DNA of 35,626 bases from an uncultured Gammaproteobacteria bacterium (lineage in GTDB: Bacteria; Patescibacteriota; Microgenomatia; UBA12405), in contig CAYSME010000003.1 of NCBI GenBank assembly GCA_964432085.1, positions 1-35,626 on the forward strand. Reading direction: 5' to 3'. A model generated the notes under the pieces. The model was not told where the DNA came from, searched no databases, and saw only the letters and a list, made by a program, of their open reading frames with translations. This document shows, piece by piece, positions 9,553 to 30,718 of this stretch; the first letter of the stretch is position 1, and every line of letters starts with the position of its first letter. The position numbers and the translations under genes were made by a program.

Positions 9553-9572
9553 CGGTCCGAAATTTCGGACAG
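9553..9572. repeat. Hairpin repeat CGGTCCGAAATTTCGGACAG in the gyrB 5' region
   Basis: 16-nt perfect palindrome. The second copy at 26804..26823 matches at 19 of 20 positions. Confidence 0.6.
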
Positions 9573-26602: not shown

Positions 26603-26658
26603 AAAGCACCGAATATATTGTTGTTTTACAACAGTAGACCTCGGTGCTTTATTTTTTT
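26603..26658 (+). terminator. Long-stem terminator of the deacetylase gene
   Basis: AAAGCACCGA ... TCGGTGCTTT (10 bp) with a small internal hairpin, followed by ATTTTTTT. Confidence 0.55.
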
Positions 26659-26675
26659 AAAAAAATCCCAAAGCT

Positions 26676-26684
26676 TGATATAAT
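26676..26684 (+). promoter_or_regulatory. Extended -10 promoter TGATATAAT for tRNA-His
   Basis: The TGnTATAAT box ends 16 nt upstream of the tRNA 5' end. Confidence 0.5.
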
Positions 26685-26700
26685 AACAAGCAATCAACCT

Positions 26701-26775
26701 GGTGGTATTAGCTCAATTGGTTAGAGCGCAGCTCTGTGAAAGCTGAGGTTGTCGGTTCAAGTCCGATATACCACC
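26701..26775 (+). tRNA. tRNA-His (anticodon GTG) with encoded G-1, CCA not encoded
   Basis: G-1, acceptor GTGGTAT/ATACCAC with C73, D-arm GCTC-AATTGGTTA-GAGC, anticodon arm CAGCT-CTGTGAA-AGCTG, T-arm GTCGG-TTCAAGT-CCGAT. Confidence 0.9.
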
Positions 26776-26784
26776 CTTAAAAAT

Positions 26785-26858
26785 TTAGCTCAATTGGTTA
26801 GAGCGGTCCGAAACTTCGGACAGGTTGAAATTGTTTATTCAAGTCCGATATACCACCC
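26785..26858 (+). pseudogene. Partial tRNA-His duplicate (D-arm and 3' end retained, 5' acceptor absent, anticodon arm replaced, T-stem broken)
   Basis: 26785..26805 is identical to 26708..26728 (21 nt). 26838..26858 is identical to 26756..26776 (21 nt). The middle is replaced by the hairpin GTCCGAAACTTCGGAC. Confidence 0.7.
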
Positions 26859-27564
26859 CAATCATCTGTACCACTTCTTTTTTTTCCTTAGGCCACAACA
26901 TTGATTCTGGACTTCCAAAAAAATTTTCATCCCTTTGCATAATCGGTTCCAAACAAAAATAATTGTTATCAAAAATCTTATTACCCGTTTCCTCCAAAAA
27001 CCCAGTCCACAATTTTGCATAATCAAACCCTATTAATTGCCAATTAATCAAAGGTTTTCCTGAAATATTCAACTTATTTAACGGCCTTAAATTAATAAAA
27101 TCATTTTGTTTTATTCCTAAACTTAAATCAAAATCATTCAACATTGTCCCCTCCCAACCCAAATCACTCGACCAATAATTATGAATTGCCACATTAACTG
27201 GTTTTTCAACCTCACCTTTATTTTCAACCACCACTTTCTGATTGAAATATTCTTCACCGTTAAAAGAAAAAAATTGATGTACATCTAATCCATCTTTCTC
27301 ACACTCTATATCTATTAAATTTTCTGTCTGCTGAACTAATTTCCATGACTCGTTTCTAAAAGGGCCATGAGGTGGCAGATTAAATTCTTTAACCCCTTCC
27401 ATATTAAAATTAGGAACACATATATGAGTATTACCTTTCTTACCGTCAATTCTTTCAAAACTTCCCAATATTAAAACTCCCCTATTTTTTAGACTCACAA
27501 TTCTCCCACCTTCCAAATCCACCTCCAATTCCCAATCTTTAGAATTTAATTGAATCGTACCCAT
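26839..27564 (-). CDS. Aldose 1-epimerase-family (glucose-6-phosphate 1-epimerase-like) protein
   Basis: GGRIVSL ... THICVPNFN ... PPHGPFRNESWKL resembles YeaD-like mutarotases. The last six codons and the TGA stop lie inside the tRNA-His-derived repeat. Confidence 0.5.
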   Translation of the reverse strand: MGTIQLNSKDWELEVDLEGGRIVSLKNRGVLILGSFERIDGKKGNTHICVPNFNMEGVKEFNLPPHGPFRNESWKLVQQTENLIDIECEKDGLDVHQFFSFNGEEYFNQKVVVENKGEVEKPVNVAIHNYWSSDLGWEGTMLNDFDLSLGIKQNDFINLRPLNKLNISGKPLINWQLIGFDYAKLWTGFLEETGNKIFDNNYFCLEPIMQRDENFFGSPESMLWPKEKKEVVQMIGVVYRT

Positions 27565-27588
27565 TAATTAAATTTTACTTTAAAACAA

Positions 27589-27609
27589 CGGTGGTGTAAA
27601 ATACCACTG
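27589..27609 (+). promoter_or_regulatory. Hairpin copying the tRNA-His acceptor stem, immediately 5' of the leader ATG
   Basis: CG-GUGGUGU-AAA-AUACCAC-UG. The inner 7 bp match the tRNA-His acceptor helix GUGGUAU/AUACCAC, with one A-U changed to G-U. A G occupies the -1 position. Confidence 0.5.
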
Positions 27610-27657
27610 ATGACTAAAACACGTTTAAGCAAAAACCATCATCACACTGACTTTTAA
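27610..27657 (+). CDS. Putative 15-aa leader peptide MTKTRLSKNHHHTDF
   Basis: ATG ... CAT CAT CAC ... TAA mini-ORF upstream of hisS. Its stop abuts the antiterminator 5' strand. No strong Shine-Dalgarno. Confidence 0.45.
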   Translation: MTKTRLSKNHHHTDF

Positions 27658-27686
27658 GTTGGTGGTTTTAGCGTGTCAAAATTAAT

Positions 27687-27708
27687 CCCGCCAACGAGCG
27701 GGTTTTTT
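27687..27708 (+). terminator. Intrinsic terminator in the hisS leader (attenuator)
   Basis: CCCGC-caacga-GCGGG followed by TTTTTT, about 50 nt upstream of the hisS ATG. Confidence 0.6.
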
Positions 27709-27757
27709 AGTATCAAATATCAACCCGGTCCTATTTCAATAAGGTCTTTTATTTTAA

Positions 27758-29020
27758 ATGTTAAAATCAACTATGACACAAATTAAACCACAAACTCTAA
27801 AAGGTTTTCGCGATTTTCTTCCCAAAGAAATGACCGTTAGAAACTACGTCAAAAATACTTTAACTCAGCTTTTTGAAAGCTACGGTTTTTTGCCGCTTGA
27901 AACTCCTGCTCTTGAATATGCCTCAGTTTTAAAAGGCAAATATAGCAACGAAACCGATGATAAACTCGGTTATTTTTTCAAAGACAATGGCGATCGAGAC
28001 ATCGGTCTTCGTTATGATTTAACCGTCCCCACTGCTAAAGTATTAGCCATCTATAGTAATAATGAAATTCAACTTCCATTTAAGCGATATCAAATCCAAC
28101 CAGTTTGGCGCGCCGAAAATACTCAGCGTGGTCGTTACCGAGAATTTATCCAGTGTGATATAGATATTTTTGGCAGCACCTCCTCCATCGCTGACGCCGA
28201 AATTATTTCGATAATTTATGCTGGCACCCAAAAATTAAATTTTAAAAATGCCTTAATTAAAATTAATAGCCGATCCATTCTTTTTGATATTTTATCTAAA
28301 AGTAATGTTCAAGATAATCAAAACTTAATACTACAATCTATCGATAAAATGGACAAAATAGGTGAAGATGGAGTAAAAAATGAGCTCAATCAAAAAGGCC
28401 TATCCACTACCCAAATTAATGATATTTTCAAATATATCAAAATAGCACAACCAGATGAAAACCTAAAACAGATTTTTTCTAATTTAAAAGCTCTAAATAT
28501 CCCCGACACCGCTTATATTTTTGACCCTACCCTCGTCCGCGGATGTGACTATTACACCAGCACTATTTTTGAAGTTGCCGTCACTGAGCCAAAAGTTGGT
28601 GCCATTGGCGGTGGTGGTCGTTACGATAATTTAATTAAAACTCTCGGTGGTCCCGATATTCCCGCTGTCGGTTTTTCTTTTGGTTTTGAAAGAGTCGTTG
28701 ATGTTATTCAAGAATTGAATTTACTACCAGAAATTAGTCAGTCAAAAATTAAAATTTTAATTGCCAATTTTGGTGATGAAACTAAATCAGAAATTTTAGA
28801 ATTATTCTCTAAACTGCGACAAAATAGTATTTCATCAATCATTTATCCAGACTCTGATAAACTCGGCAAACAAATAAAATATGCCGATAATTTAGGTATT
28901 CCTTATTTAGCCATCATCGGCACTGACGAAGCTAAAAACAATCAAATAACTCTTAAAAATCTTAAAACTACTGAACAAAAACCCGTTAATTTTGAAGAAT
29001 TAATTAAAATTTTAAAATAA
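27758..29020 (+). CDS. hisS: Histidine--tRNA ligase
   Basis: LKGFRDFLP, RYDLTVP, FKRYQIQPVWRAENTQRGRYREFIQCD, GGGGRYDNL, and a C-terminal anticodon-binding domain. An alternative start is ATG 27773. Confidence 0.93.
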   Translation: MLKSTMTQIKPQTLKGFRDFLPKEMTVRNYVKNTLTQLFESYGFLPLETPALEYASVLKGKYSNETDDKLGYFFKDNGDRDIGLRYDLTVPTAKVLAIYSNNEIQLPFKRYQIQPVWRAENTQRGRYREFIQCDIDIFGSTSSIADAEIISIIYAGTQKLNFKNALIKINSRSILFDILSKSNVQDNQNLILQSIDKMDKIGEDGVKNELNQKGLSTTQINDIFKYIKIAQPDENLKQIFSNLKALNIPDTAYIFDPTLVRGCDYYTSTIFEVAVTEPKVGAIGGGGRYDNLIKTLGGPDIPAVGFSFGFERVVDVIQELNLLPEISQSKIKILIANFGDETKSEILELFSKLRQNSISSIIYPDSDKLGKQIKYADNLGIPYLAIIGTDEAKNNQITLKNLKTTEQKPVNFEELIKILK

Positions 29021-29989: not shown

Positions 29990-30718
29990 ATGCCAAACAT
30001 TAATCAAAATATCGCCATCATGGAATTTCATCCAGGTCCCGGAGGTCAAGAGGCCACCATTTGGGCCAATGACTTAATGAACATGTATACCCGCTATGCC
30101 AACAAAGTTGGTTGGAAGGTTATTCAACTTGACGAAAATATTATTCAAATTTCTGGTTTTGACGCCTACAACCAATTAAAATACGAAGCCGGCACCCACC
30201 GTGTTCAACGAATTCCAGTCACTGAAAAACGAGGTCGTATTCAAACTTCAACTGCTTCCATTGTTATTATGCCTCAAATCGAATCCAAAGAAATTAATTT
30301 TAGTATGGATGATGTGGTTATTACCGCCAGCAGAGCCGGTGGTAATGGTGGTCAAAACGTTAATAAAGTTTCCACTGCTGTTCATCTAGTCCATAAACCA
30401 ACTGGTTTAATGTTTGACGTCCGAACCGAACGTTATCAACAGCAAAATCGAGAAATCGCCCTCAAACTTCTTCAAAACAAGCTCTATCAAATGGAAGAAG
30501 AAAAAAAACAGGCCGAAATCTCAGCCGGTCGTGCTGGTATTAGTCAATCAGGACGAGCCGATAAAATCCGAACATATAATTACCCCAGAAATCAAGTAAA
30601 AGACCACAGGATAGAAAAATCTTTTAATAACTTAGATTCGATTATGCAAGGCAATTTAGATGATTTATTACTAGAACTCACCACCCTCGACCAACCGATT
30701 GAAGAAAAGAAAGACTAA
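29990..30718 (+). CDS. prfA: Peptide chain release factor 1, lacking N-terminal domain 1 (242 aa)
   Basis: PVT codon-recognition tripeptide ([14 protein letters not shown]), GGQ motif ([13 protein letters not shown]), [15 protein letters not shown]. The alignment starts at about residue 105 of E. coli RF1. Confidence 0.85.

Follow-up and report, generated by a model that had tools for sequence, protein, structure and literature searches.

The window (the whole 35.6-kb stretch of DNA that was analyzed) contains a short leader element between a tRNA-His gene and hisS. The features of the locus are as follows.

26702..26776, + strand: tRNA-His (GUG), with G-1 at 26701 and its own promoter at 26656-26684.
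27574..27602, + strand: promoter P1 of the leader, from the promoter scan, with the same geometry in homologous elements.
27589..27609, no strand assigned: inverted repeat CGGTGGTGT-AAA-ATACCACTG, a tRNA-His acceptor-stem look-alike that overlaps two promoters.
27610..27657, + strand: leader ORF MTKTRLSKNHHHTDF, 15 codons plus stop, with ATG at 27610 and TAA at 27655-27657.
27619..27676, + strand: P1 hairpin, segment 1 paired with segment 2 (anti-antiterminator), from the MFE fold (z = -3.24).
27637..27645, + strand: regulatory His codons CAT CAT CAC, codons 10-12 of the leader ORF.
27658..27665, + strand: segment 2, GUUGGUGG, the antiterminator 5' strand, which starts 1 nt after the stop codon.
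27687..27708, + strand: intrinsic terminator, segments 3 and 4, from the terminator scan and the folds.
27759..27767, + strand: promoter P2 of hisS, an extended -10 (TGtTAAAAT) 5 nt before the hisS ATG.
27773..29020, + strand: hisS, histidyl-tRNA synthetase (Pfam tRNA-synt_His and HGTP_anticodon).

The hisS product is 85% identical to the HisRS of Ca. Shapirobacteria, and the gene starts 64 nt downstream of the terminator. The tRNA-His gene, also on the + strand, lies 834 nt before the leader ATG. Fragments of tRNA-His are duplicated elsewhere in the locus (26787-26862; L174).

The leader mini-ORF contains three consecutive His codons. The terminator that follows consists of CCCGC (27687-91), the loop CAACGA, GCGGG (27698-702), and six T residues (U6 in the RNA; 27703-08). 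It was among the sites found by the terminator scan, which returned 4 sites in 1.6 kb against 0.8 expected. An earlier note on this DNA had described the mini-ORF, the His codons, the terminator, and two alternative pairings (1:2 and 2:3). We re-read every one of its coordinates, and all were correct. The 35.6-kb window contains a single element that combines a -10 box, an ATG at the 5' end, a short ORF, and a terminator; a search of the whole window for other sORF-plus-terminator devices found none. The covariance model of the element family, described below, matches the window only at this leader. The score of 82 bits is mid-range for the family.

Promoter P1 has a -35 box (TTTACT, 27574-79), a 17-nt spacer, and a -10 box (TAAAAT, 27597-602), with the ATG 7 nt later. 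In the homologous elements the geometry is TTGACx, 17 nt, TAnAAT, 6 to 8 nt, and ATG. The leader transcript is predicted to start at or beside AUG 27610, i.e., to be leaderless. The mini-ORF does lack a good Shine-Dalgarno (SD) sequence, as had been cautioned. This poses no problem for a leaderless ORF whose ATG is 7 nt past a -10 box. Other genes in the window have a similar arrangement. At 19 of the 31 gene starts (about 60%), a -10 hexamer lies 4 to 9 nt upstream, compared with 11.5% of all ATGs, and only 5 of the 31 have an SD-like motif. Operon-internal genes in the window likewise have no SD sequence.

The TAAAAT box at 27762, suggested before as a separate promoter for hisS, is real and conserved. 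The surrounding motif, AAATGTTAAAATCAACTATG, is kept in nearly all relatives, including those with no leader. The hisS mRNA from promoter P2 is also predicted to be leaderless. On a read-through RNA, the hisS AUG would be internal and without an SD sequence, and hisS would have to be translated from there. The conserved P2 limits the share of control that the leader can have over hisS expression. An alternative hisS start at ATG 27758 was rejected. In L006 and L009 this ATG is not in frame, which means that the AAATGTTAAAATCAACTATG motif is not coding.

The inverted repeat just upstream of the leader ATG had been the headline of the earlier note, which read it as a tRNA-His acceptor-stem mimic and possible HisRS operator. 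The resemblance stands as sequence. The 21-nt hairpin CGGTGGTGTAAAATACCACTG (27589-27609) matches G-1 and the acceptor stem of the tRNA-His in the window at 15 of 16 bases. It would be stable if it were RNA (-11.8 kcal/mol, z = -4.1), and tRNA-His fragments have been duplicated in this locus. A functional mimic with a regulatory role for the leader or hisS, whether as a HisRS operator or as an aminoacylatable microhelix, is nevertheless scarcely credible. The hairpin carries the leader -10 (27597-27602) and the -35 (27600-27595) of a divergent promoter that serves the minus-strand gene. It is upstream of both predicted starts and so would not be in the RNA. Its core, GTAAAATAC, is inherited promoter sequence common to L001 and L018, and none of the 19 homologous promoters forms such a hairpin. 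At position 73 the repeat would have U, whereas bacterial tRNA-His has C73 paired with G-1. A thrS-type tRNA-mimic operator lies in a transcribed 5' region and is conserved, and the repeat has neither property. We rejected 27589-27609 as an RNA operator on these grounds (upstream of the predicted starts, on overlapping divergent promoters, and absent from relatives).

The unconstrained MFE structure of the leader transcript is a 20-bp hairpin (transcript nt 10-67, 27619-27676) followed by the terminator, at -26.5 kcal/mol. It has a z of -3.24, and none of 200 shuffles was equally good. The hairpin pairs 27619-25 with 27670-76, 27632-41 with 27660-69, and 27646-48 with 27657-59. In its central helix, AAAACCAUC(A) at 27632-41 is paired with (U)GGUGGUUUU at 27660-69. 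The His codons and the stop codon are enclosed within it. A second, incompatible helix is available. The antiterminator (2:3) pairs GUUGGUGG at 27658-65 with CCGCCAAC at 27688-95, a strand that also lies within the terminator region.

In the predicted folds, which helix forms depends on how much of the 5' end is covered. When the first 40 to 46 nt were masked, mimicking a ribosome stalled on the His codons, the 2:3 antiterminator became the MFE. When the mask reached the stop codon plus 12 nt, the terminator alone formed. The window and 8 of the 13 relatives tested gave the antiterminator as MFE under the stall mask. In the other five relatives the terminator remained the equilibrium MFE despite the mask, and a kinetic argument would be needed to account for switching there. 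The window leader thus has the parts of a classical leader-peptide attenuator: a short ORF with cognate regulatory codons, an intrinsic terminator between this ORF and hisS, a 2:3 antiterminator mutually exclusive with the terminator, a 1:2 helix that overlaps the regulatory codons, and a stop codon placed for a terminating ribosome to mask segment 2.

At least 20 homologous elements were found in Shapirobacteria-like genomes and metagenomes, and one diverged element, L045, was found in a more distant genome. Fourteen of the 20 come from species-representative genomes and at least six from an unbiased pattern scan of metagenomes. Among the matches listed for that scan, 6 of 120 loci were genuine, and all 6 were followed by tRNA-His. 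The pattern was too permissive, and chance matches in high-GC contigs dominated those listed, so the scan says little about total abundance.

The 20 elements share a layout. The frame from start to stop is 13 to 16 codons in all of them. The first His is at codon 9 to 11 in all (codon 10 in most). The His run is HHH in 17, HRH in 2, and HH in 1, with the stop 2 to 4 codons on from the last His. In 20 of 20, this stop codon is 0 to 4 nt before UGGYGG. In every element, the G-rich segment 3' of the stop can pair with either the His-codon region or the terminator 5' arm. The peptide is conserved only at the His codons; the N-terminal sequence is variable. Relatives thus keep the His triplet and its frame, the place of the stop, and both alternative helices, and the core of what had been proposed, a His-codon attenuator coupled to hisS, is supported on this basis. 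The kept frame also supports, if only indirectly, translation of the predicted mini-ORF.

The helices are conserved as well. The 2:3 pairing is present in 97.3% of cells over the 20 sequences, compared with 28 to 64% when the strands are slid. The terminator is paired in 92.5% of cells and has a covarying closing pair. Within the close family the core pairs of the antiterminator are invariant, so the covariation test was uninformative there. L045 supplies the compensatory antiterminator change. Its HisRS is 44% identical, its leader encodes MKITVIKNNHHNLP followed by a stop, and its four segments have changed coherently (CCUUCC / GGAGGG / CCCUCC / GGAGGG). It is co-directional with hisS and directly before it.

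The P1 region is more stable than shuffled sequence (z <= -1.65) in 18 of the 20 elements. RNAalifold on a MAFFT alignment recovered the terminator alone, because the P1 helix is in different registers across subfamilies. We replaced it with per-sequence folds, a pair count by subfamily, and an alignment-free arm-swap test. In this test the N-terminal codons paired with their own 3' arm at a mean of -9.5 kcal/mol and with the arms of other subfamilies at -4.4. None of 5,000 derangements was as good, so the outer P1 arms co-evolve. The variable N-terminal codons thus co-evolve with the RNA 3' of segment 2.

All 20 elements are co-directional with, and no more than 160 nt upstream of, either hisS (5 elements) or tRNA-His (15 elements). 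In the latter 15, tRNA-His and not hisS directly follows the leader. The tRNA starts only 3 to 17 nt after the T-run in L017, L078, L162, L177, L180, and L015. In L017, L078, L162, and L177 there is no room for a promoter of its own, and a search for a promoter-like site between the terminator and the tRNA in L017 and L078 found none. With no promoter in between, the tRNA in these six cases would have to be transcribed by read-through. The window differs in that it has the conserved extended -10 promoter between the terminator and hisS.

That promoter raises the possibility that the leader is an independent unit. Its 99-nt RNA, always ending at 27708, or its 15-aa peptide would act in trans, hisS would be expressed from P2 only, and the linkage to histidine genes would reflect shared locus ancestry. 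The terminator is canonical, hisS has its own conserved extended -10, and several relatives express hisS with no leader. L003, L004, and L016, which are close relatives, have none before hisS and so can do without the element for hisS expression. Action in trans also has a precedent in the trpL attenuator RNAs and leader peptides of Sinorhizobium (PMC7968998, PMC7298713). We consider this reading unlikely. Through many rearrangements, all 20 elements have remained next to hisS or tRNA-His and in the same orientation, and six relatives would need read-through. The conserved 2:3 complementarity and stop placement would serve no purpose in a constitutive terminator. A peptide acting in trans also fits poorly with conservation at the His codons only.

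The element has often been gained, lost, and moved, and in L003 only decayed traces of promoter and leader are left. The window copy might by the same token be a nonfunctional relic of an element that works before tRNA-His elsewhere and was moved to hisS by rearrangement. Its -35 box, TTTACT rather than TTGACT, would fit such decay. It is, however, fully intact from promoter and ATG through the three His codons and the stop to P1, antiterminator, and terminator, and it scores 82 bits. Intact copies directly before hisS have also been kept, independently, in four other genomes and in L045. A relic is quite improbable on these grounds.

Rfam scans at the gathering score and at E <= 10 returned tRNAs only, with no T-box and no His_leader. 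P9, Trp_leader, and Leu_leader matches were all below their gathering scores, and the P9 and Trp_leader alignments were mainly on the terminator. These results bear on a switch that works independently of the ribosome, in which uncharged tRNA-His, HisRS, or another RNA-binding protein would bind the leader and the ORF would play no part. The sequence of segment 2 (UGGUGGUUUUAGC) is similar to the 5' end of tRNA-His and contains UGGN, as in a T-box bulge; the earlier note had seen a loose likeness to the T-box core. Firmicutes hisS is regulated by a T-box (PMC2965389). The likeness did not hold up. There was no match to the T-box leader (RF00230) at E <= 10, no other non-tRNA family reached its gathering score, and the UGGU/UGGC of the leader mismatches the C73 discriminator of tRNA-His, for which UGGG is needed. 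The acceptor stems differ among relatives (GCGGCAU in L015, GUGGGAU in L013 and L017, and GUGGCUG in L078), yet segment 2 is UGGCGG in all four. All 20 elements and L045 have an ATG at the predicted start, an uninterrupted frame with the His codons in it, and a stop that abuts segment 2. Such a switch is highly improbable.

Taken together, 27574-27708 is probably a ribosome-mediated leader-peptide transcription attenuator that senses charged tRNA-His. Transcription would begin from promoter P1 at or beside AUG 27610, and a ribosome would initiate on this 5'-terminal AUG. When His-tRNA(His) is plentiful, the ribosome would reach UAA 27655-57. Its footprint would cover segment 2 (27658-65), or the 1:2 hairpin would re-form after release. 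Either would leave the terminator free to form, and the transcript would end. When His-tRNA(His) is scarce, the ribosome would stall on codons 10-12 and hold segment 1. The free segment 2 would then pair with the emerging CCGCCAAC, no terminator would form, and the polymerase would continue into hisS. The leaderless promoter P2 would give constitutive, basal hisS expression. Since hisS has this promoter of its own, the most likely role of the attenuator is to supplement the basal level with inducible expression. The element most likely raises hisS or tRNA-His expression when charged histidine tRNA is short. In the relatives in which a tRNA gene follows the leader, the attenuator appears to gate the tRNA-His gene itself.

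The arrangement had been thought unfamiliar for hisS. It is not unprecedented in kind, since leader-peptide attenuators are described at the aminoacyl-tRNA synthetase genes pheST, trpS2, and leuS (PMC1262725) and histidine leader peptides have been predicted before a hisS paralogue and hisZ in Bacillus by Naville and Gautheret in 2010 (PMC2965389). E. coli pheST (with pheM) and the predicted Streptomyces trpS2 and leuS leaders have an ORF with cognate codons, a terminator, and exclusive hairpins before a synthetase gene (PMC1262725). As in those systems, expression of the synthetase would be coupled to charging of its own tRNA. Here, in contrast, the amino acid is His, the ORF is leaderless with no SD sequence, and the host is a member of the CPR/Patescibacteria. 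The gene has a second, constitutive promoter, and some family members are found before a tRNA gene.

The leader shares with gammaproteobacterial hisL the use of His codons as sensor and the four-segment terminator/antiterminator logic. It has no covariance-model similarity to it, and Rfam His_leader (RF00514) gave no match at the gathering score or at E <= 10. hisL has seven consecutive His codons. The window leader has three and the family only two or three, which counts against the attenuator. hisL controls histidine biosynthesis genes, which the host lineage here largely lacks.

The Bacillus leaders before the hisS paralogue and hisZ also consist of a His-codon short ORF and a premature terminator and are likewise known from comparative genomics only (PMC2965389). 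They belong to another phylum and are predicted to act on a paralogue or a regulatory subunit linked to biosynthesis; the targets here are a bona fide HisRS and tRNA-His. Their ORFs are not described as leaderless. A sequence relation is not expected. The Firmicutes hisS T-box serves the same goal, converting tRNA-His charging into a choice between terminator and antiterminator. It senses the tRNA by direct binding, whereas the sensor here is predicted to be a translating ribosome. The leaderless poly-Cys sensory short ORFs of mycobacteria (Canestrari et al., bioRxiv 10.1101/834739) are attenuators too. There, stalling on cognate codons of a leaderless sensor remodels the downstream RNA, as proposed here. 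That switch frees a ribosome-binding site and acts on translation; the element here would act on transcription through a terminator and respond to His rather than Cys.

Against the prior work compared here (PMC2965389, PMC1262725, and bioRxiv 10.1101/834739), the element would be a new, leaderless form of the classical leader-peptide attenuator, in a CPR bacterium. CPR/Patescibacteria have tiny genomes, obtain amino acids from other organisms, and are considered to regulate their genes little. To our knowledge, almost nothing has been described of their cis-regulatory RNAs. A conserved but sequence-diverse family of leader-peptide attenuators would mean that CPR bacteria sense tRNA charging via the ribosome and tune their histidine decoding machinery. 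The leaderless sensor ORF joins leaderless translation and transcription attenuation, which are usually studied apart. We know of no described tRNA gene under ribosome-mediated attenuation. With the leader placed in front of a tRNA gene, as it is in relatives, attenuation would reach beyond protein-coding operons to the supply of tRNA. The element also provides a search model with which intergenic regions that otherwise look empty could be annotated in thousands of metagenome-assembled genomes.

The family may form a histidine "ribulon" in CPR, a proposal we regard as possible and somewhat short of probable. The leaderless His mini-ORFs would be the sensor of a homeostat that gates transcription of the tRNA-His gene, hisS, and downstream peptidase or salvage genes. 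In type A, read-through of a leader-peptide attenuator that measures charged tRNA-His would be the sole source of tRNA-His transcripts in several genomes. In type B, a second leader begins at the encoded CCA of the tRNA (CCCCAUG), so that 3' processing of the tRNA could create the leaderless mRNA of the next attenuator.

We consider it likely that hisS in the window is preceded by a leader-peptide attenuator. The genome is low in GC (about 33%), and its HisRS shares 85% identity with the enzyme of Candidatus Shapirobacteria genomes (CPR/Patescibacteria). The features of the locus are as follows.

26839-27564, minus strand: gene 5' of the leader region, weakly aldose-epimerase-like
27610, plus strand: leader ATG (sequence reading)
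27637-45, plus strand: His codons CAT CAT CAC (sequence reading)
27655-57, plus strand: leader stop TAA (sequence reading)
27658-65, plus strand: segment 2, GUUGGUGG (sequence reading)
27687-27708, plus strand: terminator, CCCGC, 6-nt loop, GCGGG and U6 (sequence reading and terminator scan)
27773-29020, plus strand: hisS (Pfam tRNA-synt_His and anticodon-binding domain)

The leader encodes the peptide MTKTRLSKNHHHTDF. Reading of the sequence showed that the earlier note had placed the ATG, His codons, stop, segment 2, and terminator correctly. Because the neighboring gene lies on the opposite strand, the intergenic region 27565-27772 is divergent, and its terminator therefore cannot mark the end of an upstream gene. 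When unmasked, the 99-nt RNA forms a hairpin of 20 bp (nt 10-67), with the terminator after it (-26.5 kcal/mol; z = -3.24). In this hairpin the Thr4-Arg5 and Lys8-His11 codons are paired with the sequence directly 3' of the stop codon.

Two alternative pairings had been proposed, 1:2 (anti-antiterminator) and 2:3 (antiterminator). Both are present. A stalled ribosome was imitated by a mask on the RNA that reached 12 nt beyond the A-site codon. Under this mask the 2:3 antiterminator was the minimum free energy structure for the window element and for 8 of 13 tested relatives. A mask at the stop codon left the terminator alone. At -11 to -18 kcal/mol, the 2:3 duplex is at least as stable as the terminator hairpin (-9 to -15 kcal/mol).

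Homologous elements were retrieved from relatives and metagenomes. A one-genome-per-species HisRS scan gave 22 close relatives, and their hisS and tRNA-His upstream regions, read directly and searched by regular expression, contained 14 elements. A DNA-pattern scan of metagenomes, with matches that were mostly noise, added at least 6; every genuine element among the matches listed adjoins tRNA-His. The covariance model was built from 20 elements (14 genome and 6 metagenome). In the window it hit a single site (27610-27708; 82 bits). It also detected a diverged copy at relative L045 (43 bits) and matched, weakly, the His leaders of two Levybacteria loci.

The 20 elements keep the His run, the stop position, and the alternative helices, as the earlier note had expected of a real device. 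The leader ORF has 13 to 16 codons and a variable N-terminus (for example, MLITRLFQNHHHTNF, MSNKTLCLNHHHANL, MISAIVISKHHHTTN, and MINLGKINHHHVN). His stands at about codons 10 to 12, as HHH (17/20), HRH (2/20), or HH (1/20). The last His is 2 to 4 codons from the stop, which lies 0 to 4 nt 5' of UGGYGG. In 18 of 20 elements the 1:2 hairpin region surpasses its dinucleotide shuffles in stability (z as low as -5.4). Of the cells for the eight antiterminator pairs, 97.3% are paired, versus 28 to 64% when slid; this shows conservation and not covariation, since the core pairs are invariant. The terminator is paired in 92.5% of cells, and its closing pair covaries. The outer 1:2 helix differs in register among subfamilies, which defeated a single consensus. 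Within one subfamily it pairs in 84.5% of cells, with three compensatory pairs. In an alignment-free arm-swap test, N-terminal codons gave a mean of -9.5 kcal/mol with their own 3' arm versus -4.4 kcal/mol with arms of other subfamilies; none of 5,000 derangements was as good.

L045 encodes a HisRS only 44% identical, with the leader peptide MKITVIKNNHHNLP directly 5' of hisS. Its segments 1 to 4 are CCUUCC, GGAGGG, CCCUCC, and GGAGGG; those of the window are CCAUCA, UGGUGG, CCGCCA, and GCGGG. All four are replaced coherently.

The element lies directly 5' of hisS in five cases (window, L001, L018, L012, and L019) and 5' of tRNA-His in the other 15. The gap from T-run to tRNA is 3 to 6 nt in L017, L078, L162, and L177 and 12 to 17 nt in L180 and L015. 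Promoter scans of L017 and L078 found no site between terminator and tRNA. With neither promoter nor room there, tRNA-His could be obtained only by terminator read-through, and this placement argues that termination would be regulated, not absolute. The attenuator is evolutionarily labile: at hisS, L003 has only a decayed remnant, and L004 and L016 have none.

The mini-ORF lacks a good Shine-Dalgarno (SD), a reservation of the earlier note that is true and is accounted for by leaderless initiation. The leader ATG stands 7 nt beyond the end of a promoter-like site (TTTACT, 17 nt, TAAAAT), and the 20 elements repeat the arrangement TTGACx, about 17 nt, TAnAAT, 6 to 8 nt, ATG. A -10-like hexamer lies 4 to 9 nt upstream of 19 of 31 window gene starts (about 61%) versus 11.5% of all ATG triplets; SD-like motifs occur at only 5 of 31 (about 16%). 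Initiation in this Shapirobacteria genome therefore appears mainly leaderless and SD independent. The mini-ORF conforms to this rule at its predicted transcription start, which would explain the absent SD. Genes inside operons (e.g., 5137, 11540, and 29023) show no SD and are preceded by AT-rich sequence; for this organism an internal hisS AUG on a read-through transcript is therefore nothing unusual. Window 27572-27602 holds back-to-back overlapping promoters of two leaderless genes (minus-strand start 27564; leader ORF 27610). Within 45 bp, each promoter's -35 overlaps its partner's -10, which implies RNA polymerase competition between the minus-strand gene and the leader.

The suspected second promoter for a leaderless hisS transcript is supported. 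It is TGtTAAAAT, 5 nt 5' of the ATG, and the AAATGTTAAAATCAACTATG motif is nearly invariant among relatives, leader-less ones included. The motif is not coding sequence: in L006 and L009 the upstream ATG falls in a different frame. As hisS keeps its own promoter, all that an attenuator 5' of it can contribute is regulated transcription above a basal level.

The inverted repeat CGGTGGTGTAAAATACCACTG (27589-27609) had been read as a tRNA-His acceptor-stem mimic and possible HisRS operator. The likeness stands: it reproduces G-1 and the acceptor stem, and as RNA it would form a stable hairpin. The RNA operator does not. The loop is the -10 box of the leader promoter, and the 5' arm and loop carry the -35 of the divergent promoter; holding both promoters' boxes, the repeat is flanked by two predicted transcription starts, and RNA polymerase probably never copies it. 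Its core, GTAAAATAC, is promoter sequence common to L001 and L018, and none of the 19 other elements has a hairpin at this position. We treat the likeness as coincidence. It was perhaps helped by GUGGUG, the His-codon complement, which resembles the tRNA-His 5' strand and so makes segment 2 resemble the tRNA 5' end. The loose T-box resemblance was likewise rejected. An Rfam scan gave no T-box match, the C73-CCA end of tRNA-His would find no partner in UGGU or UGGC, and segment 2 does not track acceptor-stem differences among genomes.

The attenuator claim is thus supported by anatomy, alternative folds, family conservation, and the coherent exchange in L045. By its sequence, the element would be mechanistically a classical leader-peptide attenuator, with all the defining features visible at that level. 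It falls outside the Rfam His_leader and T-box families. Among aminoacyl-tRNA synthetase genes, leader-peptide attenuation is known for pheST and predicted for trpS2 and leuS (PMC1262725), and in bacilli a His leader is predicted 5' of hisZ and of a paralogue of hisS (PMC2965389). A mycobacterial study (bioRxiv 10.1101/834739) describes leaderless Cys-sensing sORFs that control translation, not termination, whereas the element here is coupled to an intrinsic terminator. A literature search of limited reach found no Patescibacteria paper on leader-peptide attenuators. New here are the CPR lineage, the leaderless sensor ORF joined to an intrinsic terminator, and the tRNA-His gene as a direct target in relatives.

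A second His-codon leader family (type B) is marked by an HxH motif in ORFs of 22 to 26 codons, such as MKNKINFIKNHRHTVGTNTAGFLAA. It was located as follows, and also in L010, L014, L021, L078, L088, and L177.

L007, 863-1000: type B leader
L009, 1162-1290: type B leader
L013, 2842-2960: type B leader
L017, 1737-1870: type B leader
L002, 2682-2810: type B leader

A CCCCGC...GCGGGG terminator lies 3' of the ORF, and GCGGGG within the ORF complements its 5' arm. Type B leaders follow tRNA-His. The encoded CCA and the leader ATG overlap as CCCCATG in L013, L017, L078, and L088, and a leaderless mRNA could thus arise by 3' processing of the tRNA. The genes 3' of the leaders encode peptidase M20 (L017), an unknown 237-aa protein and nucleoside hydrolase (L009), or HisRS (hisS; L002 and L013). 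L001, with the main leader type, and L002 have the promoter and first 13 codons in common. Different His-codon leaders with terminators occur a few hundred nucleotides 5' of hisS in Levybacteria L042 (2381-2502) and L024 (2076-2189). The L042 leader, MTNVNLIKAKHQHITLAGGVIFCV, precedes a gene that we take by eye to be hisI-like. The L024 leader, MKISGLNHYHYSA, precedes one that is presumably, also by eye, Asp/Glu-racemase-like. With these, His leader attenuation seems widespread in Microgenomates.

A decayed second tRNA-His copy (26787-26862) lies directly 3' of the intact gene (26702-26776). It keeps the D-arm, T-loop, and 3' acceptor strand with CCA, lacks the 5' acceptor strand, and has the hairpin CGGTCCGAAACTTCGGACAG in place of the anticodon arm. 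It was not called by ARAGORN or Rfam. This copy carries the original 3' junction, CCACCCCAATCAT, which L004 also has; the intact gene has no encoded CCA. The 20-nt hairpin CGGTCCGAAAnTTCGGACAG occurs twice in the window (0.01 expected), 5' of gyrB (9553-9572) and inside the broken copy (26804-26823). A similar hairpin (CGTTCGAAAGCTTTCGGAC) lies inside a broken tRNA-His 5' copy in L174. The hairpin may be a small mobile or insertion-prone element.

The window also encodes a peptide chain release factor of only 242 aa (29990-30718; PCRF positions 99-194 and RF-1 domain), so that about 100 N-terminal residues are missing. Its gene follows rpmE (L31; 29674-29928) and has its own -10 box and an upstream hairpin. 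Its length is conserved in relatives (L009, 4584-5309; L017, 4613-5350).
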